Shown here: piece after piece, positions 13 through 13,460 of the stretch
How positions within the stretch are numbered: position 1 is the stretch's first letter
Layout: every line of letters starts with the position of its first letter
Assembly (NCBI GenBank): GCA_034434835.1
Contig: DAOTXX010000064.1
Coordinates: 3,402-67,401, forward strand
Source: Thermoflexales bacterium
GTDB lineage: Bacteria; Chloroflexota; Anaerolineae; Fen-1058
Length of the DNA: 64,000 nucleotides
Direction of reading: 5' to 3'
The notes under the pieces: model-generated
Database searches by the model: none
What the model saw: only the letters and a program-made list of their open reading frames with translations
What the model was told of the DNA's origin: nothing
Program-made: the position numbers and the translations under genes

Positions 13-1104
13 ATGTCCCTCCATCAAGCCCGGTGGATCGTCAAGACGACAGCGCTCCTGGCCGTTGTCGTTCTGGTGATGGCTTTTCAGATCAAGCCGG
101 CGGCCGCGCCTGCGCCTGAAGGGGTGACCTCGCTGGTGTCGTTTGCGCTTCTCCCTTTGCCCGTTGACCGGCCGGAAGCTGCCGAGGCGGCCTCCGCAGA
201 GCCAATCACAACTGACCCGGTACCCACGCCGATGCCCGCTGTGCCCACACCCACACCGACGGCTGTGCTTGCCACGCCTGCGCCGACCCCCACCGAGCCA
301 CCGGATGCGCTCGTCCCGCGCCGGGTGAGCGCAAGTCGAACGACGCCGGTCCCGAATCTCATGCAGCCAACGGCGGTGCCTTTTTTCCCGCCTGCGCCCG
401 ATGGCACGTTGCGCGTCGCCCGTGTGCCGATCTTGATGTATCACTATATCTCGGAACCGCCGCCCGGCTCGGATCAACTCCGCCACTCGCTTTCGGTCGC
501 GCCCGCCAATCTGGACGCGCAGATGCACTATTTGAAACAGGCAGGCTACCAAACGATCACGCTGTACGACCTGTACGATCATCTGGCCCAGGGCAAGCCA
601 TTGCCCGACAAACCGATCGTCCTCACCTTCGACGATGGTTATGAGGACGCCTTTACCAACGCGATGCCGATCCTCCTCAAGTACGGTTTTGTGGGGACGT
701 TCTTTGTCTTGACCGGGCCGGCCGATCGGGACGGGGCCGGGGCGTATCTCACCTGGAAGCAGATCGCGGCGATGAGCGCGGCCGGGATGGACATGGAACT
801 GCACGGCCGCGAGCACGTGGACCTGCGCAATCGCTCTTTCGAGTTCCTGGTTCATCAGACGGCGGGGGGCCGAGAGTCCATCGAAGCGCACACGGGCAAG
901 CCGGTGCGATGGTTTGCGTACCCTTCGGGACGCTACGATGCTGCTGTGGTGCGCGTGCTAAAATCGGCCGGGTTCTGGGGCGCGGTGACGACCCTGCCGG
1001 GTCAAACCCATACGATGGACGGGTTGTTTGACCTGGAGCGTGTGCGCATCAGCGGATCGAACAGCCTGGAGATGTTCAAAAAAGCCATCAAGGGCAATGA
1101 GTAA
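13..1104 (+). CDS. Polysaccharide deacetylase (NodB-type) with N-terminal TM helix and Pro/Thr-rich linker
   Basis: TM segment, PT-rich linker, then NodB motifs (TFDDGYED..., HGREH, YPSGRYD) typical of carbohydrate esterase family 4. Confidence 0.7.
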   Translation: MSLHQARWIVKTTALLAVVVLVMAFQIKPAAAPAPEGVTSLVSFALLPLPVDRPEAAEAASAEPITTDPVPTPMPAVPTPTPTAVLATPAPTPTEPPDALVPRRVSASRTTPVPNLMQPTAVPFFPPAPDGTLRVARVPILMYHYISEPPPGSDQLRHSLSVAPANLDAQMHYLKQAGYQTITLYDLYDHLAQGKPLPDKPIVLTFDDGYEDAFTNAMPILLKYGFVGTFFVLTGPADRDGAGAYLTWKQIAAMSAAGMDMELHGREHVDLRNRSFEFLVHQTAGGRESIEAHTGKPVRWFAYPSGRYDAAVVRVLKSAGFWGAVTTLPGQTHTMDGLFDLERVRISGSNSLEMFKKAIKGNE

Positions 1105-1135
1105 GAAACCCGTTTTCTCCGAGAAAACGGGTTTC
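1105..1135 (+). terminator. Stem-loop GAAACCCGTTTTCTCCGAGAAAACGGGTTTC 3' of deacetylase gene (putative terminator, weak U-tract)
   Basis: Perfect 13-bp stem seen directly; near-identical hairpin recurs at 22639-22683. Confidence 0.45.
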
Positions 1136-1245
1136 TCCCCCCAATTCATCCTCCGATTTGCGACATCACCCGTTTGGACGGGATGACATTCTCCGGCAGC
1201 CCATGTCCCCAGGGCTTGCGAAAGATCAGTTCTCTCATCCGCTGC

Positions 1246-1452
1246 TCAAGCTCCTCGCACAATATCAAGCAGCCCAGGGCGCACCGTCGGCTCACCGCCG
1301 GTCAATCGGATCTTGTCAAAGCCCAATTCGTGTGCGGCGCACACGATAGCGAGGATTTCATTGGCGGTGAGCGACTCTTGGTGTGGCGTAAAGCGCATCC
1401 CCTCCGGCATACAGTAAACGGGGTGGTGGTCGCGCCATCTGAACAGGCGCAC
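1246..1452 (-). pseudogene. moaA: Relic of moaA (molybdenum cofactor biosynthesis radical-SAM protein), about 60 codons only
   Basis: Translation VYCMPEGMRF...LTANEILAIV...FDKIRLTGGEPTVRPGLLDIV aligns with MoaA residues about 25-85; no room for the remaining ~250 residues; bounded by deacetylase gene and a MITE. Confidence 0.55.
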
Positions 1453-1483
1453 GGCTTTGGGCTGGCGCGAGGCCGGCCCTACT

Positions 1484-1668
1484 TTTTCAATTGGGTGTGG
1501 CTAAAATCGGTTGAGACGCGCCAGTGTCATTGCACAGTGTCATTCTGAGCGCCCGAAGGGCGCGAAGAATCTCGTTTGCGTGGGTCTGAGACCCCTCGCC
1601 TGCCTTCGGCAGGCTCAGGGTGACAAATTGGATCAACCAGATTTAGCCACACCCTTTTCAATTTGACA
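1484..1668. mobile_element. MITE-like non-autonomous element, copy 1 (TIR TTTTCAATTGGGTGTGGCTAAAATCGGTTGA / inverted at other end)
   Basis: About 30-bp terminal inverted repeats; internal conserved core TGTCATTCTGAGCGCCCGAA...GCGCGAAGAATCTCG with nested hairpins; second copy at 41412-41614. Confidence 0.6.
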
Positions 1669-1669
1669 T

Positions 1670-2500
1670 TTGATCTTTGACCGGGTACACTGCCTGACGA
1701 TGAACGGCCATATCTGGCTCGCGCTCGGGCTTGGGGGATTGGCCTACCTGGCCTATCGGGGCGCGCCCATTTGGATAGATAGCGGTCGGCGCGGCGCGCG
1801 ACCATCGCACCGATTGCGTTGGGCGCTCACCGGGATCGTTGCGCCGTCCCGCTACTGGTGGGGAGCGCGCATCGAAATGATGCCATCACAGGAACAGGCC
1901 GACCTGCTTGCACATGAAACTGCTATGCTGGGCCTGACTCGCGCCGATAGCCTGCACTGTCCTCTCTGCGGCGCAGAGGTAATGAACGCCTGGACGCTGG
2001 GCGCGGATGGTCGGCCGACCGTCGCGCCCGGCCCGCTCCAATGCCCGCAGTGCGATTTTCGACTCGACGCCTGCCGCCACTGTGTGCACTTTCTGCCCGG
2101 CTCGGCGACGACCAGCGGCTTGACGCTGCGAGGCGACGAAATGACTTTTGGCCGCTGTAGATTTTACAAGACGCCACAGCCGGTCGAGCGGATCACCACG
2201 CCTGAGATGGCCCGGCGTCTGAAGGCGAGCGGTTACGAGACGATCAACTCGCCGCTGCCGATCGTGGACAGTTACATGCCGCCAGACTTTTGCCGCGCCT
2301 TTCAGCCGGAACGAAAGCGGATCAAAGAGAGCCATGTCCGCTGGCCCGACGCTCGCCGCGCAGCGTTGCTGCGATTGCTTCGCGGGAGGGACGCCTCCCT
2401 TCTCCCACTAGGAGAAGGGCCGGGGATGAGGGAGAACGACACACCCTCAGAAAAAACATCGCCCGAGGAACCCTCGGGCGACGAGCAGTGGTTGATGTAA
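1670..2500 (+). CDS. Hypothetical membrane-anchored protein with Cys-rich (zinc-ribbon-like) cytoplasmic region
   Basis: N-terminal hydrophobic helix (alternative start at 1700), CPLCG...CPQCD...CRHC motifs; convergent with CHAT gene. Confidence 0.4.
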   Translation: MIFDRVHCLTMNGHIWLALGLGGLAYLAYRGAPIWIDSGRRGARPSHRLRWALTGIVAPSRYWWGARIEMMPSQEQADLLAHETAMLGLTRADSLHCPLCGAEVMNAWTLGADGRPTVAPGPLQCPQCDFRLDACRHCVHFLPGSATTSGLTLRGDEMTFGRCRFYKTPQPVERITTPEMARRLKASGYETINSPLPIVDSYMPPDFCRAFQPERKRIKESHVRWPDARRAALLRLLRGRDASLLPLGEGPGMRENDTPSEKTSPEEPSGDEQWLM

Positions 2501-5131
2501 TCACATCACTAGCTTCAAATCCGCGTAACAGTACGGCGTATAGACCAACCCCAGCACGTTGCGCTTGAGCAAAAGCTGCCAGCGCAGCTTTTGAATGGCT
2601 TTGCCAATTGGCTCGCCATTCAGAAACGCCTGGATCAACCCCTGCCCGAACTCGACGGCCAGCGGCTCAAAGACGGTGACCTCGGTGCCGATGATGCCTG
2701 ATGCCCCTGCCGCGCCAAACTCGGGCAGGAAATTCGAGAGCGCCTCCGGCGTGAACTCGACTGTGTGACAGCCATTGATGAACACAAGCGGGCGCACGTT
2801 GTTGAATCGCCAATGGTCTTCCAGCCCCAACCCGGAAAGATTCGACGGCACCAACTGATCGCCTTTGCCCACTGTCAGCCAGGGCTTTTTGCCGTCGGGC
2901 GTCGAGCCGCCGTGACAGTAAAAGTAACACAACTGCTGCGCTTGCTTCAGGCCCCCGTAAACTTTTTCCAGCTCGTCGGCCACGCTCGCCTCGCCATTCT
3001 TTTGCTTGATCTGCTTGACGATCCATTCTTGATGTGCCAGTCGGAGCTTGAAATCCTCGCCCACGTACACGTGGATCGTCACCTTAGGATGACCGCCGGC
3101 CTTGATTTCGCGCACGATCGAGGTCGGCTTGCCATCTTTTTTGATCACGCTCAACGGCTGCTCGACAATGTGCCGAAAGCCCCAAAAGCCTGCGAGGCAA
3201 ATCACGTTCGGGTCGTCGCCGTGCGAGCAGTGCACGCAGGAGGCCAGTCCCTCTTCTGGCGTCTTGAACTTGAGCGGCTCCAGACACACTTGATTCTTGT
3301 CACGATCGATCATCAAGCGCCGATCATAGATGCCATCCCATGGAAAGACAAAATCGCTCGAAAGCCGCGCGATTTGAATGACCGCCGAGGGCGTATCGGC
3401 GAGCGCCTGCCGCAGCTCGCGCGTCAAGTCAATCGTCTCTTCTCGATAGAACACGCTGCGGAACAGCGCGTTCCCCACATAAGCCAGCGTCTTGAGATCG
3501 TGGACGAATTGCTCCTGGCTGCCGGAATTGTCCGCGCCAAAGCGATAGCCTTCGTCGTCCCTGACGATGCCGAGCAGCCTGGCGCGGAACTCGGTGACGG
3601 CTTCTTTCATCTTGTCGCGGCCCACGTCGAGCGCGCCTTCGGTCTGCGTGCCGACCACGCCGATCATGTGCGTGCCATCCGGGTTGTCGTTGACCAAGAC
3701 GTTCACGCGGCGCTCTTGCAACTGCATGATGTCGGCCCAATCCTCGCTCAAGCTGTACTCGATCTCGGCCCAATTGCCGCGCTCGCCCCGGCCCAGCTTG
3801 CGCTCTTGCTCGTTTACCCGCGCGTGGAGCAGGATGGACTGGACGAGGTTGTTCTGGTAATAGAGGCCGATCCTCAAGCGAGCCTCCCGGGTCACCTCAC
3901 GGGGCGTGACCGCCAGGTGCAGTCGCCGGGTGGCTCCCGTTCTGAACAAACGCAATTCAGCCGTGTCTTGTTCAATGTCAAAATCGCGGCTGAACAGTTT
4001 GACCCGCAGGAGCAGACCTTGATCCGGGATAGGCGGCAGGTCAGGGTCAATCGGGCGCGGGGCGACGATGATGCTTTCGCGCAAGAGCGGCCCGATGTGC
4101 AGTTGCGCCCGGTAACGTTGCCCACGAGCCAGGGTGCGCTCGCGGATGAACGCTTCGCCGTCCTCCTGGTCGGTGAACCAGGTGTTGACGTAGCGTGCCC
4201 GCGCGTGGGTTTTCTCCAGCGTGGACGCCGAAACCTCTGGTGATTCATCGGCGGCCCGGGGGGAAGATGGAATTTCACGCGTGCGCGCCTGGTTCGCAAG
4301 CCTCTCATACGCTTGTCGAGTGCTGGTCAAGTCCATGCGCCAAGTCTCGTAGACTAGCGCAGGCAGGTTATCTTCTAGCGCCAACACAAGTTGCTGGATT
4401 TTGCCCGGGGCGCTCACGTCACTTGCAGGCATAGTGTTGATCGTGGGAATGGTGAGCGAATGTAGCGGCATTGCCAGCGGATCGGGCGCGCTCAGGCTCA
4501 CAACCTCCTGAGCCAACTGGCCCGCCTGGATCGCGCCATAGCGATCGGGATAGCGCACGATCACATACCAGTTTTCGTTGCCCTTGACCTCGCGCAGTGT
4601 GTCGAACACATCTCGGATAGTTCGGGTCGCAGACACGACGACGAAATCAGTGGTAGGGATCGCGGCAGTCGCCGCGGCGGCCGCCAGTTGCTCAAAAGCC
4701 GCTTTGGCATTTTGAAAATCCAAGATGGAAGGACGCAGTTGCTCAAATGCTATGGCGACTGGCCTGTCGCCTTCCAAGACTAGCGTGAGTGGGCGAATCT
4801 GATCCAGGCTGCCGGACGAACTCGGCACAGTGTTGATGGCAGGAATAGCCAACTCGCGCAGCGTCACGCCGAGCGCAGCCTGAATGCCCCGGCTGATGAC
4901 CATTTGCGCCAGCTTGCCCGCCGAGAGGCCGCCATAATGATCCGCGTACTGGACAATGACGCACCACCCGGAATTTGCCTGGGCGTCGGTCAGCCTGCGG
5001 AACACGTCGCCTACCGTCTCGGTTTCGGAAACGATGATGAAATCGCGCGAGAGCATTGCGTGCCACCCTAGCAGCTTGTCGGAGAGCAGGCTGGCCTCCC
5101 TATGCCAGCCCCTTGAAAACCGCCGACGCAT
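2501..5131 (-). CDS. Large CHAT-domain (caspase-like) protease with two N-terminal CBS-like repeats
   Basis: C-terminus has His (YFYCHGG) and Cys (LVFINGCHT) dyad, GASGIIGTEV...AFLNGEPIGKAIQKLR and terminal LGLVYTPYC, matching CHAT. Two ~110-aa N-terminal repeats (FIIVSETETVGDVF...VIVQYADHYGGLSAGKLAQ / FVVVSATRTIRDVF...VIVRYPDRYGAIQAGQLAQ) resemble CBS modules. Confidence 0.7.
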   Translation of the reverse strand: MRRRFSRGWHREASLLSDKLLGWHAMLSRDFIIVSETETVGDVFRRLTDAQANSGWCVIVQYADHYGGLSAGKLAQMVISRGIQAALGVTLRELAIPAINTVPSSSGSLDQIRPLTLVLEGDRPVAIAFEQLRPSILDFQNAKAAFEQLAAAAATAAIPTTDFVVVSATRTIRDVFDTLREVKGNENWYVIVRYPDRYGAIQAGQLAQEVVSLSAPDPLAMPLHSLTIPTINTMPASDVSAPGKIQQLVLALEDNLPALVYETWRMDLTSTRQAYERLANQARTREIPSSPRAADESPEVSASTLEKTHARARYVNTWFTDQEDGEAFIRERTLARGQRYRAQLHIGPLLRESIIVAPRPIDPDLPPIPDQGLLLRVKLFSRDFDIEQDTAELRLFRTGATRRLHLAVTPREVTREARLRIGLYYQNNLVQSILLHARVNEQERKLGRGERGNWAEIEYSLSEDWADIMQLQERRVNVLVNDNPDGTHMIGVVGTQTEGALDVGRDKMKEAVTEFRARLLGIVRDDEGYRFGADNSGSQEQFVHDLKTLAYVGNALFRSVFYREETIDLTRELRQALADTPSAVIQIARLSSDFVFPWDGIYDRRLMIDRDKNQVCLEPLKFKTPEEGLASCVHCSHGDDPNVICLAGFWGFRHIVEQPLSVIKKDGKPTSIVREIKAGGHPKVTIHVYVGEDFKLRLAHQEWIVKQIKQKNGEASVADELEKVYGGLKQAQQLCYFYCHGGSTPDGKKPWLTVGKGDQLVPSNLSGLGLEDHWRFNNVRPLVFINGCHTVEFTPEALSNFLPEFGAAGASGIIGTEVTVFEPLAVEFGQGLIQAFLNGEPIGKAIQKLRWQLLLKRNVLGLVYTPYCYADLKLVM

Positions 5132-5218
5132 CGGGATGCGTCGGCCACTCCGACAGGCTGCTAGTTTTCGGATAGGCTCTTGGCCTTATGAGCAATGGAC
5201 AAGCCGCCCAAGACACGA

Positions 5219-5638
5219 TCACTCTTCAGGGCTGCGGGGCCTCTTGTCACCAACCGCCGGGCGCGAGGCTGGCGATGAGCCGCCATCTTCTGGGCTGGTG
5301 CCAGTCCCCTCCATCGCGCCGCCGGTATCCAGACCCTGCGGATTGAACATGGCATTGAGCACCTTTTTCGGTGCTTTCCAGAGGAGCAGCACAAAAATGA
5401 TATAGTACAGGAAAAAGCCAATCGCCAGACCGATACCGTAATAACCAAACATGGTTTGTTTGGTCTCGACCACTGGCGCGGGGAACACGGCCAACACCGC
5501 CGGGCCGACGAGCGCCGAGATGATCACGGTGATGTCAGCCAGCGTGCGCTCTTTGGTGTTCTTGCGCATGGTATAATAGGTTACCCAGCCGATCACCATG
5601 CCAAAGCCGACTGAGCCGAGAGCAAGTGAAGTCTCCAT
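5219..5638 (-). CDS. Small polytopic membrane protein with Gly/Ser/Pro/Glu-rich C-terminal tail
   Basis: 3-4 predicted TM helices; paralogous to next gene. Confidence 0.5.
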   Translation of the reverse strand: METSLALGSVGFGMVIGWVTYYTMRKNTKERTLADITVIISALVGPAVLAVFPAPVVETKQTMFGYYGIGLAIGFFLYYIIFVLLLWKAPKKVLNAMFNPQGLDTGGAMEGTGTSPEDGGSSPASRPAVGDKRPRSPEE

Positions 5639-5641
5639 CGT

Positions 5642-5905
5642 TCATCTCCTGGGGGAAAAGTGATGGGCGCGACGCCACGGCGCCGAGATCAGCGTCAGAC
5701 CATACAGCGCTACGCCGACGATCAAACCGACGCCATAAAGCACCAGTCCCACCTGGCCCGTGAATACGGATTGGACTGCCGCGCCCAATAGCACGCCCAG
5801 CGCAGCCTTGAACTCGCGCCAGCCGGGCCGGCTGTGGTGAGTCAGGTAAGCTATGATCCAGCCCAAGACCGATCCAAAGCTCAACGCACCGCACAAAACG
5901 ATCAT
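5642..5905 (-). CDS. Small membrane protein, paralogue of 5219-5638 (start trimmed to MIVLCGALSF)
   Basis: LSFGSVLGWIIAYL / VLYGVGLIVGVALYGL align with LGSVGFGMVIGWVTYY / FGYYGIGLAIGFFLYY of neighbour. Confidence 0.45.
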   Translation of the reverse strand: MIVLCGALSFGSVLGWIIAYLTHHSRPGWREFKAALGVLLGAAVQSVFTGQVGLVLYGVGLIVGVALYGLTLISAPWRRAHHFSPRR

Positions 5906-6713: not shown

Positions 6714-8072
6714 ATGAGCATGGACAAGTTTGAAGCGTATGTGGAAGCGAATCGCGATCGGTTCATCGCCGAGCTGCAGGCTTTTTGCCGCCAGCCCAGC
6801 GTGGCCGCGCAGAATTGGGGCATGCGCGAGATGGCCGACTTGGTGCTGACGCGACTCGAGAAACTGGGCGCAGACGCGCGCATCATCCCGGTCGAGGGCG
6901 GCGCGCCGGTCGTCTATGGCGAGATCGGCAGCGGCCCGCGCACGCTGATGATTTACGATCACTATGACGTGCAGCCGCCGGAGCCGCTCGAGCTTTGGGA
7001 GACCGGTCCATGGGAAGCAGCCATTCGCGATGGGAAAATCTTTGCACGCGGCGTGGCCGACAACAAGGGCGATCTGTTGTGCCGCATCCAGGCGATCGAA
7101 ACGTACCTGGCGACGATCGGGCCGCTGCCGCTCAAGATCAAATTCGTCTACGAAGGCGAAGAAGAGATCGGCAGTATCCATCTGCCGCAGTTTGTCAAGG
7201 AGAACCACCAACTCTTGCAAGGGGTAGATGGCTGTCTGTGGGAATTTGGCGGCAAGGATATTAACGAGCGATTCCAACTCACCTGCGGACTCAAGGGCAT
7301 TGTCTATGTCGAATTGCATGCGCACGGGGCGAATCGCGATCTGCACTCGGCGTTGGCCGCGATCGTCGTGGACCCGGCGTGGCGGCTGACGTGGGCACTG
7401 GCGACGTTGAAGGACGAGAGCGACAACATCCTGATTGATAATTTCATGAGCCATGTCCGCCCGCCCACTGAGGCCGAGAGGGAGACACTCAAGCACATCC
7501 CATTTGACGAAGAGAAGGAAAAGGCCGATTTCGGCATCCCGGCCTTTATCCGTAACTTGACTGGCCTCGAATTGCTCGAAAAGTATCTCTACGAGCCGAC
7601 CTGCACGATCTGCGGCCTGTATTCGGGTTACATTGGTCAAGGCTCCAAGACTGTGTTGCCGAATCACGCCTTTGCCAAGATTGATTTCCGCCTGGTCCCT
7701 AACCTCACGCCCGACCTGGTCGTTGACCTGTTGAAGAAACATCTGGGGCGGCGCGGTTTTAGCGACATTGAGGTGAGCATGACCGAGACCGGCGAAGAGG
7801 TCGCGCGCTCGTCGCTCGACTCGCCCATCGTCCGCGCCGCGGTCGAAGCAGCCCAAGCCGTGTACCCCAGCGCGCCGGTGATCAACCCGACTTCAGCGGG
7901 GAGCGGGCCAATGTACCCGCTGTGCCAGGCGTTGGGGATCCCGGCGGTGAGCGCAGGCTGCGGCTGGCATGGCGCGCGCGGACATGCGCCCAATGAGAGC
8001 ATCCGCCTCGCAGATTACTTTCAGTGCATGTCCTTTATCCGCGAGCTGATCGATCACTTTGCGAGGATGTAG
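6714..8072 (+). CDS. M20 family metallopeptidase (ArgE/DapE/CPG2-like)
   Basis: HYDVQP, GVADNKGD, EGEEEIGS metal-binding motifs of M20 dipeptidases/deacylases. Confidence 0.8.
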   Translation: MSMDKFEAYVEANRDRFIAELQAFCRQPSVAAQNWGMREMADLVLTRLEKLGADARIIPVEGGAPVVYGEIGSGPRTLMIYDHYDVQPPEPLELWETGPWEAAIRDGKIFARGVADNKGDLLCRIQAIETYLATIGPLPLKIKFVYEGEEEIGSIHLPQFVKENHQLLQGVDGCLWEFGGKDINERFQLTCGLKGIVYVELHAHGANRDLHSALAAIVVDPAWRLTWALATLKDESDNILIDNFMSHVRPPTEAERETLKHIPFDEEKEKADFGIPAFIRNLTGLELLEKYLYEPTCTICGLYSGYIGQGSKTVLPNHAFAKIDFRLVPNLTPDLVVDLLKKHLGRRGFSDIEVSMTETGEEVARSSLDSPIVRAAVEAAQAVYPSAPVINPTSAGSGPMYPLCQALGIPAVSAGCGWHGARGHAPNESIRLADYFQCMSFIRELIDHFARM

Positions 8073-8120
8073 ATCAAAGCTTCCCACAGGCCCGGTGCCT
8101 ACGGGAAGCGCAATGAATCA

Positions 8121-9056
8121 TCAGACAATGACTCGAAGCTTGCGCGGCAAGATTTCCATCATGAGCGCTTTGGCGCAGGTGGCATAGATCTCGCCGTCGG
8201 CGTGAACGGCATAGCCCTCCTCGCAGCGCACGGTCACATGTTTGGCGCGCATCATGTGCACGTGAGGGTTGGTGGCTTGCGTGCCCTTCATAAAGAGCGG
8301 GATCAGCATGAACATTTCAACGCGGCGAACCTGATCGACCAGGCAGATGTCAAACAGACCATCATCCATTTCGGCTTGCGGCGTGACATAGAATCCGCCA
8401 CCGAGTCGCCGCCCATTGGAAACCGAGATCATCATCATCGGGCGCTCGATGCGCTGGTCGTCTAGTTCGACGATGGCGCGCGGCGCGCGATAATACCACA
8501 GCATCGTCTGCAGCACCGCCAACGTGTACATCAGGAACCCGCGCGCCCAACTGAGCTTGCGGCTCACAATGTTGACCGTGCCATCAAAACCGATGCCCAC
8601 ACCGTTGCCAAAGTAACGGCCGTGATCAGAATCGCCCCAGATTCGGCCCAGGTCAATCCAACGTGTCTTGCCCGTGTAAAAGTAGCGGAGGATGGCCTCG
8701 AGTGTTTTGCGATCGTGCGCGCGCGGCATGCCCAGCATCCACGCGAAATCATTCCCCGACCCGATCGGGATCAGGCCGAGCGCGGCACGGCTATTCTCGC
8801 CGTGTCCGCTCCTCATCAGGCCATTGACCACTTCTTGCGCCGTTCCATCGCCGCCCGCGGCGGCAATGATGTCATAACCTTCCTCACAGGCGCGCGTGGC
8901 CAGCTCAATAGCTTCGCCAGGCCGGGACGTCTCCACCCAACTGACCTCGCCGTTCTCGCTCAGCCATGATCGAATGTGCGGCCCCAACTCGCGGGCGTGT
9001 CCGTGATCGGCGGCCGGGTTGAAAATTACCTGGATTCGTGGCATCTTGCTCCCCAT
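8121..9056 (-). CDS. Diacylglycerol kinase catalytic-domain lipid kinase (YegS/DagK-like)
   Basis: RIQVIFNPAADHG..., IIAAAGGDGT, IPIGSGNDFA motifs. Confidence 0.8.
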   Translation of the reverse strand: MGSKMPRIQVIFNPAADHGHARELGPHIRSWLSENGEVSWVETSRPGEAIELATRACEEGYDIIAAAGGDGTAQEVVNGLMRSGHGENSRAALGLIPIGSGNDFAWMLGMPRAHDRKTLEAILRYFYTGKTRWIDLGRIWGDSDHGRYFGNGVGIGFDGTVNIVSRKLSWARGFLMYTLAVLQTMLWYYRAPRAIVELDDQRIERPMMMISVSNGRRLGGGFYVTPQAEMDDGLFDICLVDQVRRVEMFMLIPLFMKGTQATNPHVHMMRAKHVTVRCEEGYAVHADGEIYATCAKALMMEILPRKLRVIV

Positions 9057-10285: not shown

Positions 10286-10965
10286 AGCGCTACCTTCCCT
10301 CCGTCGTTGTCATGGCAGTCGGCTGGATCACATTGCTCACTTATTTCCTGCCTGGCCTGGTGTTCGTCCGGTTGCTCTTGGTCGAGGTGGCGATCATTGT
10401 GGTCGCATTGGGCATGATCCTGGGCGCCGGGAATGTGCTCTCAGTCCATCTGACCCAGGTCTCGCGCGGGCCATCCAGGTTCTTGAGTTTTGTGTTGGTG
10501 GCCAGCTTCCTGATTGTGTTCATGGTCTCTTTCATCTTTGAGGGAGGCGCGGACCTGGCAAGCAAGTTTGTGGCAGGGCGCATGGTACAAGATGCCCCCC
10601 ACATCGCGCAGCAAGGCGTCGCTGGCCCGGTGATGGTCGGCGTGTATCAATACGTCCTGATCCCGACCCAATCTGCGCTCGCGGCGCTCCTGCCGTTCCT
10701 CCTGGCTTTTGCTGCCTACCGAACGTTGCGGATACGCACTGCGGCGAGCCGCGCCGGAGCTGCCGTATTTTTGATCACAGCCATATTGGTGTTGTTGGGT
10801 CAGGTTCCACTCCTCAACTTGGGGTTTCTTGGTGATATACGCGAGTGGGTCGTGAGCGTATTGGCGATGGCCGGCATGCGTGGCATCCTGCTAGGCGTCG
10901 CTATTGGCATCACGGCGACCGCCTTGCGTGTGCTGATTGGGGCAGATCGCCCGACGAGTGACTGA
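10282..10965 (+). CDS. Polytopic integral membrane protein (about 6 TM)
   Basis: Hydropathy of translation; stop overlaps next start. Confidence 0.45.
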   Translation: MKRYLPSVVVMAVGWITLLTYFLPGLVFVRLLLVEVAIIVVALGMILGAGNVLSVHLTQVSRGPSRFLSFVLVASFLIVFMVSFIFEGGADLASKFVAGRMVQDAPHIAQQGVAGPVMVGVYQYVLIPTQSALAALLPFLLAFAAYRTLRIRTAASRAGAAVFLITAILVLLGQVPLLNLGFLGDIREWVVSVLAMAGMRGILLGVAIGITATALRVLIGADRPTSD

Positions 10966-13460
10966 TGATCACCTGTCCGAATTGCGGCGCATCGAATCCA
11001 GACCATAACCTGTTTTGTGACCGGTGTGACACCCGACTGCCTTCATCGGGTGCGTCGAGTAGCCGCCGTTGCCCGATGTGCGGCAAGGCTAACCCGCCAG
11101 GTAGCGACACGTGTGTCTCGTGCGGCGCGCGCCTGGTTCCAGTGACAGGCCCACTGGCCCAGCAACCTGCGCCGACTTTACGTCCTTCGGCAGCGGAAAC
11201 GATAGCTGCCAAGCCAACGCCACCTGCAGCCGCGCCCAAACCCGAGCCTCCGCTGGGGCCTTCCGACGACTGGCTCAGCAGCTTGCGCGGCGCGCTGCCC
11301 GAGCAGACCGCACCTGAAGAAGAGATTCCAGACTGGTTGCGCGGCGAGCCTTCCGCGCCGGTCGAAGTTGAACCGCCGGAACTCGATCTCGCGGCGCGAT
11401 TGGGTGGAGCGCAAGCCGCTCAGCCCGAAGCTCCCGACTGGCTCCAACAACTTGCGCCCAAGCCTTCCGCTCCAGCAGTTCCTGCGCCCGCGCCTGTGGA
11501 ACAAGTACCTGATTGGCTCCAGCAACTTGCGCCCACACCTCCCAAGGCGGCGCCTCCGTCTCCTGCTCCGGCGGCTCCGCCACCCGGCGACCAAGTGCCC
11601 GATTGGCTCAAGCCATTTGCTCCGGCGGCGGCGGTTGCCGCAAGTGCCCAGCCTGCGCCTGCCGCACCGCCCTCTGCAGAACCAGAGCCTCGCCGGATGT
11701 CACCCAAGCCGCCTGTGCCACCTGCTACAGCCGCGCCAACGCCAGGCGAGGCCGAGATTCCCGATTGGCTCAAGGAGCTTGCGCCGACACCGGCTCAAGC
11801 TCCATCCAAGCCTGCAGCGCCCACACCCGCGGAAGCCCAAGTTCCCGATTGGCTCAAGCCACCTGCGCCGACAGCTCCCCAACCTGCAGAAGCCGAGGTG
11901 CCCGATTGGCTCAAAGGGCTGGGGCCTACGCCGGCACCTGTCGAGGCCAAGGCTCCTCCACCTGCCTTCATCGAGCCTGCTGCTGCTCCGGTAGCCGCCG
12001 AAGCAGAGGTGCCGGATTGGCTGCGCGAACTGACCGCAACTCCTGCTGCGCCCCCACCGGCTGGCCCGGCCTTGGTCGCTGAGCAAGTGCCAACTGTCGA
12101 GACGCCGCTGTGGCTCGCCGAGATCAGCGCTCAACCAACCCCGGCAGAAGCTCAGATCGAGTCCCCGGAGTGGCTGAAGGAACTGCAGGTGCAGGCTCCA
12201 ACAGAACTACCTGTGGCCCCGGTTCAGGTTCCTGCACTTGCCGAAGAAGCGCCCGCCGAGGCTGCCGAGGAGTTGCCGGACTGGCTGAAGGAACTGGGGC
12301 CAGCAGGCGCGCCTGCCGCTCGGGCGCCGGTGTTCACTGGGCCGCCTGCTCCGACTCCGGCCCTGCAGCCTGAAGCCATTGGCCTGACGACTGCCCCACT
12401 TCCGGCGTGGCTGCAAAAGCTTGCGCCCCGCGAGGTGGCCCCAGAGGCAGAGAAAGAACCCGCTGAAACTGAGGGCCTATTGGCCGGGGTGCATGGCCCA
12501 TTGCCAGCAGCGCCCATCATCACGCAAAAGGCGACCGGCGAGCGCCGCCCGATGCGTCCTGAAATTCCCGCCGCCGATCTGTCGCGCGCGGGGACGCTGC
12601 AAGAACTGCTTGCGCGTGGCCCAGCCCGGGTTGTCCGTCGCGAGGTCCAAAGCCGCGCGCAAAGGCTGTGGTTCAACACGCAACGCTGGTTCATCTTTCT
12701 GGTCATCCTGGCAGTCGCCCTCATCCCACTCTTGCAACCAGATTGGGCAGTGATATTGGTGAGGGCACCGCTGTTCAAACCTGCCACCAACCATGTGTTC
12801 CAGAGCATCCAGGCCCTCAAGCCGGATGCGACGGTCTTGGTGTCGTTCGACTATGACGCGAGCCAGGCCCCCGAGATGGACACCCAAGCGCGCGTGCTGT
12901 TGCGCCACCTGGCAGCGCGCAAGGCGCGCGTCAATGTGGTCAGCTTGTATCCCACCGGCCCGGCTGTGGCAGAAGCGGTCATCCATCAGGTCAACCAGAC
13001 GCTCACGGTCACCGAGCGGGTCAATATAGCCAGCCTCAAGTACGTGCCTGGCCAGGATATGGCAGTGGCCTTTATATCGGGCGACGTGCTCACGTCGTCG
13101 TTGGTTATTGAACTGGCCGCCACCCCCGAAACCTTGCGCTGGTGGGTCGAGCAGACGTCGGCGCTCCGGGAACCGCCAGTTTCCCAGCAGCCCCCGCCGC
13201 TGTTGGCGGGCGTCAGCGCTGCAGCCGAGCCAATGTCTCAGCCGTACTATCAGAGCGAACAGATCAAAGGCATGTTGGCTGGCGTCCCCGATGCCACAGC
13301 CTACCGGCTCAAGCTTCGTGAGGTGGTCAAGGACGATCAGACGCCATTGCCCAGTGTGCTCGCGCCGCTGGCGTCCATCGGTCTTGCCAACGGGGCGCTC
13401 GTGTTGTTGATCCTGATCGGCGGCCTGGTCCAACTCGCTACAGGAGGCAGACGCAGATGA
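10965..13460 (+). CDS. Double zinc-ribbon protein with about 13 proline-rich PDWL(K/R/Q)xLAP repeats, TM helix, extracytoplasmic domain and C-terminal TM
   Basis: N-terminal CPNCG...CDRCD...CPMCG...CVSCG; repeated (E/Q)(V/I)PDWL motif; two hydrophobic segments bracket a ~250-aa domain. Confidence 0.6.
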   Translation: MITCPNCGASNPDHNLFCDRCDTRLPSSGASSSRRCPMCGKANPPGSDTCVSCGARLVPVTGPLAQQPAPTLRPSAAETIAAKPTPPAAAPKPEPPLGPSDDWLSSLRGALPEQTAPEEEIPDWLRGEPSAPVEVEPPELDLAARLGGAQAAQPEAPDWLQQLAPKPSAPAVPAPAPVEQVPDWLQQLAPTPPKAAPPSPAPAAPPPGDQVPDWLKPFAPAAAVAASAQPAPAAPPSAEPEPRRMSPKPPVPPATAAPTPGEAEIPDWLKELAPTPAQAPSKPAAPTPAEAQVPDWLKPPAPTAPQPAEAEVPDWLKGLGPTPAPVEAKAPPPAFIEPAAAPVAAEAEVPDWLRELTATPAAPPPAGPALVAEQVPTVETPLWLAEISAQPTPAEAQIESPEWLKELQVQAPTELPVAPVQVPALAEEAPAEAAEELPDWLKELGPAGAPAARAPVFTGPPAPTPALQPEAIGLTTAPLPAWLQKLAPREVAPEAEKEPAETEGLLAGVHGPLPAAPIITQKATGERRPMRPEIPAADLSRAGTLQELLARGPARVVRREVQSRAQRLWFNTQRWFIFLVILAVALIPLLQPDWAVILVRAPLFKPATNHVFQSIQALKPDATVLVSFDYDASQAPEMDTQARVLLRHLAARKARVNVVSLYPTGPAVAEAVIHQVNQTLTVTERVNIASLKYVPGQDMAVAFISGDVLTSSLVIELAATPETLRWWVEQTSALREPPVSQQPPPLLAGVSAAAEPMSQPYYQSEQIKGMLAGVPDATAYRLKLREVVKDDQTPLPSVLAPLASIGLANGALVLLILIGGLVQLATGGRRR
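11260..12420 (+). repeat. Degenerate tandem coding repeats (GTNCCNGATTGGCTNAAG... units) inside 10965-13460
   Basis: Recurrent CCCGATTGGCTCAAG/CCGGACTGGCTGAAG at irregular 60-120 bp spacing. Confidence 0.6.

Follow-up and report, generated by a model that had tools for sequence, protein, structure and literature searches.

The DNA analysed here, a stretch of 64,000 nucleotides (hereafter the window), comes from Thermoflexales bacterium, a member of the Chloroflexota (assembly GCA_034434835.1, contig DAOTXX010000064.1, positions 3,402 to 67,401). Head to tail on its minus strand, it encodes two small membrane proteins (genes A and B) and a large protease with two N-terminal CBS pairs and a C-terminal CHAT (caspase-like) module. 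Our main new result is that this CBS-CHAT operon is one member of a large, multi-phylum family of gene pairs, in which a protease with a common core is encoded next to a small protein with three transmembrane (3-TM) segments. We found no description of this gene pair in the literature, nor of a fusion between CBS pairs and a CHAT protease. An earlier note, made from the sequence of the window alone, had described the three genes and their domains. These observations are confirmed, and the interpretation given there is supported with some corrections.

Linkage of core CHAT proteases to a 3-TM protein

We scanned genomes with protein B as the query, using one genome per species and a pattern-based search, which undercounts. 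The scan returned 32 loci from Chloroflexota, Actinomycetota, Acidobacteriota, Gemmatimonadota, Alpha- and Gammaproteobacteria, and Eremiobacterota. A gene for a caspase-fold protease adjoined the B-like gene in 27 of these loci, in at least six phyla, and 26 of the 27 proteases belonged to the same core CHAT family (including HEAT-CHAT forms and two proteins cut by contig ends). The two genes were typically less than 70 nucleotides apart or overlapped, and their order varied.

The linkage holds in the reverse direction. When 54 diverse CHAT cores were used as queries against metagenome contigs, 80 loci were returned, of which 67 had a B-like gene, nearly always adjacent to the protease gene. 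It was directly downstream on the same strand in 41 loci (mostly 13-120 nucleotides away), downstream on the opposite strand in 13 (11 of them within 35-295 nucleotides), and upstream in 13. About half of the 13 loci lacking a B-like gene had less than 1 kb of sequence past the protease gene, because the contig ended there. One representative links the two proteins physically: in a Pyrinomonadaceae metagenome-assembled genome (MAG), an 800-residue protein (P0199; locus L021, 5242..7644) consists of a B-like 3-TM domain, a highly charged linker of ~100 residues, and a core-CHAT region. This is the sole such fusion among the representatives, and its gene is followed by a second, free B-like gene (7983..8264).

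All-against-all clustering of the open reading frames (ORFs) within ~6 kb revealed no third conserved gene in the 32 genome loci; the recurrent clusters were antisense shadows and one generic TPR/AAA group. The conserved unit is the core CHAT protease and one 3-TM protein. The earlier note had asked whether the three genes of the window co-occur in other genomes. The linkage of core CHAT and 3-TM protein recurs in both searches, paralogue A was seen mainly in a clade of Chloroflexota, and the CBS form of the protease is rare.

Could the small ORFs simply be unrelated neighbours, or spurious ORFs, that lie next to the protease gene by chance? High-GC sequence does yield many spurious ORFs, and ORF A, in its long form, runs into the divergent Zincin_1 gene. 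Yet protein B has 63 homologous clusters (46-99% identity), public gene callers predict exactly these proteins, and the linkage was observed in independent loci of both datasets (27 of 32 and 67 of 80) and once as a fusion. This conserved linkage rules out chance adjacency, to which we give practically no credence.

Some loci have other arrangements. In a Sphingomonadales MAG (L029, 8001..11617), the genes downstream of the B-like gene encode, in this order, an astacin metallopeptidase (159 bits), a caspase of the Peptidase_C14 family (33 bits) and a 403-residue protein without assignment, so that the membrane protein accompanies a different caspase-fold family. The plasmid pADI95-16a of Streptomyces sp. 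ADI95-16 (L122, 924..8860) has four genes in an array, which encode in turn a B-like protein, a RefSeq "CHAT domain-containing protein" without a match to the core profile, a 477-residue hypothetical protein, and a CHAT protein of the core family. B-like genes without an adjacent caspase-fold protease were seen in an Anaerolineae MAG carrying both A and B (L010, 356..1081) and in the loci L023, L026, L031 and L037; these are either orphans or genes with a distant partner. The gene of a distant homologue of the protease (P0012; L008, 285..7410) has no B-like gene with it. In its operon, a VWA-FHA protein is encoded upstream, and a TPR protein and a second, short CHAT protein are encoded downstream, which makes this another type of CHAT neighbourhood.

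Architecture of the protease and of its membrane partner

The protease is, as the earlier note had claimed, a caspase-like CHAT protein with a His-Cys dyad, which we find intact and conserved. The CHAT module, assigned from structure comparison, the Pfam CHAT profile and the dyad, occupies residues ~451-851 (2504..3706, minus strand). The catalytic residues are His715 (2914..2912, motif YFYCHGG) and Cys763 (2770..2768, motif FINGCHT), both on the minus strand. A word-indexed search of 5.8 billion proteins yielded 13 relatives, in whose alignment both residues are near-invariant, and across 54 diverse representatives of the family they do not vary at all. Against Pfam CHAT (PF12770) the protein scored 20.9 bits, under the cut-off of 24, with a match to residues 729-854 of the 876-residue ORF as called. 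The cut-off was passed by the homologues P0004, P0005, P0011, P0012 and P0013 (25-44 bits), and 33 of the 54 representatives matched the profile at E ≤ 1e-4.

An AlphaFold2 (AF2) model of the whole protein had a mean predicted local distance difference test score (pLDDT) of 69.6. It was good for the N-terminus and the CHAT part (in the latter ~60-94 per 10-residue block) and poor for residues 259-448. Comparing this model with the Protein Data Bank (PDB), Foldseek found Csx29/TPR-CHAT, separase, SAVED-CHAT and the anti-sigma factor DdvA, with E-values from 8e-8 to 1e-5 and a probability of 1.0; the entries 7zoq, 8eey, 5fby, 5mz6, 8tl0 and 8rw5 had E-values of 8e-8 to 4e-6 (probability 1.00). 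At the sequence level, phmmer found no match to the window protease in the PDB sequences. The profile of the 54 representatives gave only one marginal match there, to SAVED-CHAT 8tl0 (E 0.04), with whose H and C motifs those of H715 and C763 align. NCBIfam returned nothing useful for the three proteins and their neighbours.

The CHAT module is part of a larger conserved core. We searched 1.84 billion representative proteins (clusters at 50% identity) with the profile of the 13 homologues and obtained 8,469 matches at E ≤ 1e-3, of which 2,097 clusters at E ≤ 1e-30. Among the top 150, almost all had a best-matched stretch from profile position ~190 to ~764, which corresponds to residues ~285-851 of the window protein; a minority began earlier or later, and some were fragments. 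Since the matched stretch spans these residues, the ~300-residue middle region, which the earlier note had set apart as unassigned, is the first part of a core of ~570 residues common to ~2,000 protein clusters. This beta-rich first part covers residues ~285-450 (3707..4204, minus strand). It begins at RYVNTWF (R-Y-V-N-x-x-F in the family), where the conserved R288 and N291 mark the start of the core in the alignments of homologues and of representatives. No fold was assigned to the middle region of the model, where pLDDT is below 50 for much of residues 259-448.

A hallmark of this CHAT subfamily is the cluster Cys591...Cys610...Cys620-x8-His629 (3170..3286, minus strand), with the pattern C...C...C-[PL]-x-G-F-W-G-F-R-H. 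The three cysteines are invariant in the 54 representatives and, like His629, near-invariant in the alignment of homologues. The cluster is possibly a metal site.

What precedes the core varies greatly. In every one of the top 150 representatives the CHAT module stands at the C-terminus, and the regions ahead of the core range from 0 to ~800 residues and are highly diverse. Pfam confirmed leucine-rich repeats (LRR; in L011 and on the Rhodococcus plasmid pN2) and HEAT repeats (L035 and L036). Kinase-like, TIR-like, TM-containing and second-CHAT-like N-termini were recognised by eye only, Pfam being mostly silent on them, and about 10 of 107 N-termini in the family have TM segments of their own. 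In the homologue P0004 (L002, 10001..12847; 71% identical over the aligned core), an EAD7 domain lies between the CBS pairs and the core (residues 265-326, 56.5 bits). Effector-associated domains (EADs) bring effectors to NTPase-based conflict systems (PMC7159879), and P0004 is therefore a link to such systems. No EAD7 partner was found on the 26.8-kb contig of P0004 (L002), where the large neighbour is an AAA_16-TPR-GAF histidine kinase. Variable N-termini on a constant core are the sensor/effector modularity typical of conflict systems.

In the window protease, the N-terminal variable part consists of two CBS pairs. The first spans residues 1-110 (4727..5056, minus strand). The second, preceded by a long linker helix (residues 111-130), spans residues 131-245 (4322..4666, minus strand) and is an internal repeat of the first; the repeat copies of all homologues align together. 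The earlier note had read these ~110-residue tandem repeats as CBS-like, and structure comparison bears this out. Two beta-alpha-beta-beta-alpha motifs packed as a pair are found in the N-terminal repeats of the AF2 model, the second repeat has the same secondary-structure pattern as the first, and Foldseek matched the whole model to AMPK gamma (E 1e-4 over ~300 columns). The fold is thus confirmed: each repeat is one Bateman module, and with two modules the protein has as many CBS motifs (four) as AMPK gamma. In each pair, the model shows the second CBS motif without its first helix. The whole protein scored 22.6 bits against Pfam CBS (PF00571; cut-off 24), single repeats gave a best E of 0.012 (a match in five of 14), and the repeat profile recovered no CBS protein among the PDB sequences, only weak and probably spurious matches to NusA and PBP2x (E > 0.1). 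Hence, the CBS assignment rests on the fold.

The canonical ribose-binding motif of CBS domains, at the adenosyl-ligand site, is G-h-h-[ST]-x-x-[DN]. The corresponding residues are G42-G-L-S-A-G-K48 in the first repeat and G-A-I-Q-A-G-Q in the second, with the family consensus HYGAIQAGxLAQ, and the Asp/Asn is missing. Only a few family members share the CBS N-terminus: P0094 and P0098 match over the full length, and some metagenome loci have a single CBS-like pair. Within the large CHAT subfamily, the CBS form is thus rare.

The membrane proteins A and B are paralogous (BLASTP E 1e-7, 28% identity), and hydropathy predicts three TM segments in each, in agreement with the earlier description of two related small membrane proteins upstream of the protease gene on the same strand. 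The core of the B family is very strongly conserved (G-x-x-x-F-G-x-V-I-G-W-I-T-Y...G-L-A-x-G-F-F) and the tail is variable. The TM core is rich in small residues, with G8, G13, G17, G45, G70 and G74 invariant. Protein B is predicted to be N-out/C-in, with its tail in the cytoplasm on the same side as the protease; the positive-inside rule and the fusion protein of L021, in which CHAT follows TM3, both argue for this topology. In an alignment of ~69 non-redundant tails, nearly all B-like proteins carry a [WFVI]-[ML]-[GED] motif ~8-15 residues past TM3 (e.g., WLGDG, WMGE, FLGD, FMGG and IMD). The window protein has AME (A108/M109/E110) at this family-wide position, within G-G-A-M-E (5309..5323, minus strand), paralogue A lacks the motif, and many B-like proteins end just 1-4 residues past it. 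We take the motif as a candidate docking or cleavage site.

The membrane protein is covered by no family in Pfam, NCBIfam, PADLOC or the PDB, and RefSeq calls it hypothetical. When 30 diverse B-like proteins were compared with Pfam at E ≤ 1, they gave scattered compositional matches to unrelated TM families and none to EACC1, holins or YeaQ/YmgE (Transgly_assoc), though JGI names a few members YeaQ/YmgE. A B-like profile matched nothing in the PDB. The A+B doublet was found in the Chloroflexota/CBS clade (the window, L002, L003/L004, L009, L010, L069 and L072, plus the 3' end of a B gene in L124), with gene A upstream of B, as in the window, in L002, L003/L004, L009 and L010. L098, a locus outside this clade as assigned, has a weak second match.

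The earlier note had staked its interpretation on a CBS or other ligand-binding fold in the repeats, on conserved linkage to the membrane genes and on conservation of the dyad among homologues, and all three were found.

The three-gene locus and its surroundings

Genes A, B and the protease gene, present in one copy each in the window, form one operon in our best explanation of the locus. Gene A (5642..5905, minus strand) encodes 87 residues starting MIVLCGAL. Gene B (5219..5638, minus strand) starts 3 nucleotides past the stop codon of gene A and encodes 139 residues, i.e., the 3-TM core (residues 1-88) and a hydrophilic tail of ~50 residues. The CBS-CBS-CHAT protease gene (2501..5056, minus strand) encodes 851 residues plus the stop. 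The long ORF as called extends over 2501..5131 and would give an 876-residue form, but this upstream ATG was rejected as the less likely start: it lies inside an intergenic hairpin, and close homologues and public calls begin at M26 (MLSRDF). We placed the gene at 5056..2501 because all close homologues begin at this methionine and an 851-residue public call exists (P0001, 100% identical to the window protease). Public gene calls of the exact length are on record for all three proteins (851, 139 and 87 residues).

The intergenic hairpin (5116..5145, minus strand), read directly from the sequence between the stop of B and the start of the protease gene, is GCCGACGCA-TCCCGA-TGCGTCGGC, followed by GGTTTTC. 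It has 9 base pairs, is G+C-rich and ends in a short T run; the terminator scan, which needs five T, did not report it. It is possibly a partial terminator or attenuator, and might reduce the expression of the protease relative to the membrane proteins. The scan did report an intrinsic-terminator-like hairpin at 2457..2483 (minus strand; 12 pairs, 9 of them G-C, then TTTTTT), 18 nucleotides past the protease stop and within the 3' end of a convergent ORF. It probably marks the end of the operon.

The convergent ORF (1670..2500, plus strand) encodes a 276-residue protein with an N-terminal hydrophobic segment and CxxC pairs (weak zinc-ribbon matches), and its stop codon abuts that of the protease gene. 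We rejected it as a fourth component. Copies at the same position were found only in the near-identical contig L001 (99.6% identity) and in L123 (61%), so that the gene reflects local synteny and lies outside the wider system. Two other ORFs of the window deserve mention. A 68-residue ORF (1246..1452, minus strand) resembles by eye the N-terminal part of MoaA/radical-SAM proteins (YCMPEG...IRLTGGEP), without the upstream Cys motif, and may be a gene remnant. An 831-residue protein (10965..13460, plus strand) has N-terminal zinc-ribbon-like CxxC motifs, ~10 proline-rich repeats each with [IV]-P-D-W-L-[KRQ], and a C-terminal hydrophobic region.

No cas gene was seen among the ORFs scanned or read on the flanks of the operon, within 12 kb, which were of housekeeping types; the rest of the 64-kb window was not scanned. 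In the related locus L003, two genes lie directly upstream of the A-B-CHAT operon. The first (57..1514) is truncated by the contig end, and its product carries an FGE-sulfatase (FGS) domain (112 bits) at the C-terminus; the second (1556..2293) encodes a 245-residue protein without a family. The conflict systems of Kaur et al. often contain FGS domains. The family also occurs on seven plasmids, of Streptomyces, Rhodococcus and Calothrix. The pair on the Rhodococcus aetherivorans plasmid pN2 (WP_263510400.1 and WP_263510401.1) is annotated in RefSeq as "leucine-rich repeat domain-containing protein" and "hypothetical protein".

Proposed function, rival explanations and known systems

The domain identities, the intact and conserved dyad, and the linkage in both directions with its one fusion are established by the data. 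By inference, the CBS pairs act as regulators of the protease, the 3-TM protein serves it as substrate or effector, and the pair functions in biological conflict. The whole would be a membrane-associated, sensor-gated caspase-like module, a conflict system of the abortive-infection or programmed-death type; we put this forward as a tentative reading, plausible but short of probable. The constant parts would be the cytoplasmic core (beta-rich domain and CHAT) and the small 3-TM protein with its cytoplasmic C-terminus, and the variable part would be whatever precedes the core, i.e., the two CBS pairs in the window. The Bateman modules would keep the protease inactive until a small-molecule or ionic cue shifts their conformation. 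Active CHAT would then act on its sole invariant partner, the 3-TM protein, via the cytoplasmic motif just past TM3, and the altered membrane integrity or potential would lead to growth arrest or death.

The main rival reverses the roles. The 3-TM protein would be a constant membrane sensor or anchor, which responds to perturbation of the envelope or membrane by activating CHAT, and CHAT would cut other targets or free its own variable N-terminal effector. Kaur et al. proposed such roles for the EACC1-caspase pair of their System 4 (PMC7159879). The very strong conservation of the small-residue-rich TM core, with its six invariant glycines, suits a sensor. So do the ~10 of 107 N-termini with TM segments, some of them like TIR or kinase effectors, and the place of the motif near the C-terminus in many members, which fits docking better than peptide release. 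Many of the N-terminal modules are, however, classic sensor or regulator types (CBS in the window; the LRR and HEAT repeats mentioned above). If the membrane protein already detected the signal, there would be no need for another sensor, and no autoproteolytic site was identified. We regard the reversed roles as possible but doubtful.

Several observations weigh against the 3-TM protein being the target of a ligand-gated protease in a conflict system. Since the canonical ribose-binding Asp/Asn is missing from the CBS pairs, an adenosyl ligand is not implied and ligand gating is conjectural. Many B-like proteins have no more than 1-4 residues past the tail motif, which makes removal of an inhibitory peptide doubtful, and the motif may rather serve for docking. 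Effector-type domains (TIR-like, kinase-like) occur among the N-termini, as expected if the TM protein is the sensor. The pairwise distances of B-like proteins and of cores correlate (Mantel r 0.75, p 0.001, 43 loci), which fits inheritance as a unit, yet is expected of any two co-inherited genes. The protease, both membrane proteins and the convergent 276-residue protein were compared with PADLOC-DB v2, which should include models of the CHAT anti-phage system Borvo, and none of the four had a match at E ≤ 1; no homologues were found in viral contigs and phage records. Finally, the neighbours in the window are housekeeping genes (polysaccharide deacetylase-like, divergent Zincin_1 metallopeptidase, M20-type peptidase and diacylglycerol-kinase-like), and those in 21 related genome loci are mostly metabolic or otherwise ordinary.

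The earlier note had also asked about defence islands, and the locus of the window lies in no recognisable one. A few related loci do adjoin genes with strong matches to defence proteins (PtuA 8e-141, PDC-M01A 2e-164, mad3 2e-51 and AriA 5e-17). With most neighbours ordinary and few defence genes among them, placement in defence islands is occasional, not consistent. A different explanation would make the pair a housekeeping or developmental regulatory protease of the membrane, in which the metabolic state, read by the CBS pairs, controls the proteolysis of a small membrane regulator (cf. the anti-sigma factor DdvA). The extreme variety of N-terminal modules, the EAD7 adaptor in the close homologue P0004, the presence on plasmids and the occasional adjacency to Septu, PARIS or MADS genes all argue against such a role, which we consider unlikely.

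The conflict module that we favour can be stated in a bolder form. The ~90-residue 3-TM proteins could be new and very widespread membrane-disrupting effectors under protease control, with the [sensor]-core-CHAT proteins as their dedicated activating caspases. They would be functional analogues, at roughly one-third the size, of the unrelated gasdermins. The CBS variant would then couple a death switch to a small-molecule cue (energy charge or a nucleotide signal) without CRISPR, CBASS or STAND machinery. This is a speculation, and we think it somewhat unlikely in full.

Should the pairing prove functional, caspase-like modules of this type would form a large class, which comprises ~2,000 clusters (50% identity), spans at least six phyla, extends to plasmids, and is unnamed in Pfam, NCBIfam, PADLOC and RefSeq annotation. 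Gasdermins and EACC1 are the other membrane partners of prokaryotic caspase-fold proteases, and the 3-TM protein would be a third kind. With only two genes, the system is compact and well suited to studying the control of a CHAT protease by sensor domains. The CBS variant may be a form that can be controlled with small molecules, and the many alternative N-terminal modules on a constant core are a natural sensor-swap library.

Known systems share some of these features. The N-terminal CBS pairs differ from the Bateman modules of AMPK gamma, IMPDH, MgtE, CNNM/CorB and OpuCA by their sub-threshold Pfam score and by having S-A-G-K and Q-A-G-Q in place of [ST]-x-x-[DN]. Borvo (BovA) is a single-gene CHAT anti-phage system implicated in abortive infection (bioRxiv 10.1101/2024.10.26.620412). 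It has a CHAT protease in common with the pair described here, which differs by its membrane partner, as no obligate one was described for Borvo.

In Csx29 (the TPR-CHAT protease of Craspase) and SAVED-CHAT, an N-terminal regulatory module gates a C-terminal CHAT, and they are the best structural matches of the C-terminal half of the window protease (Foldseek E 8e-8 to 6e-5). Unlike them, our system has no cas, CARF or SAVED genes among the flanking ORFs scanned or read within 12 kb, its N-terminus consists of CBS pairs rather than TPR or SAVED, its constant partner is a membrane protein, and the sequence similarity is marginal (the match to 8tl0 given above). Csx29 cuts Csx30 at residues 427-429, and deletion of M427 blocks the cleavage (PMC10028731). 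Cleavage beside a methionine is compatible with the conserved Met/Leu of the B-like tail motif.

Gasdermin operons are the closest mechanistic precedent. Bacterial gasdermins adjoin CHAT or C14 proteases fused to LRR, TPR, WD40 or NACHT domains, and these proteases cut off a short C-terminal inhibitory peptide (Johnson et al., bioRxiv 10.1101/2021.06.07.447441). In both cases a caspase-like protease, often with sensor-type repeats (LRR, TPR), is encoded beside a membrane-targeting protein, and the cleavage near the C-terminus that activates gasdermins would have its counterpart in cleavage of the 3-TM protein. The partner here is an integral 3-TM protein of ~90 residues, not a soluble pore-former of ~250 residues, and Pfam and PADLOC gave no match of the neighbour proteins to the gasdermin family. 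Moreover, B-like proteins often have no more than 1-4 residues past the motif.

Among published systems, the nearest analogue is System 4, in which the small membrane protein EACC1 is paired with a caspase that has ~50 alternative fused domains, and in which the small conserved TM protein was read as the sensor that activates the constant caspase (Kaur et al. 2020, PMC7159879). The two differ in that EACC1 has one TM helix, against three predicted in A and B, and in that A and B have no Pfam match beyond weak compositional ones. The polarity is reversed as well: the caspase of System 4 is N-terminal and its variable domains are C-terminal, whereas here CHAT is C-terminal, the variable part is N-terminal, and the gene order also varies. 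The two systems also have features in common. Each consists of two genes, one for a small membrane protein that is strongly conserved and has many small residues, the other for a caspase-superfamily peptidase with a constant region and a highly variable one. Each is frequent in Actinomycetota and in further bacteria of multicellular habit, and each is predicted to act at the membrane.

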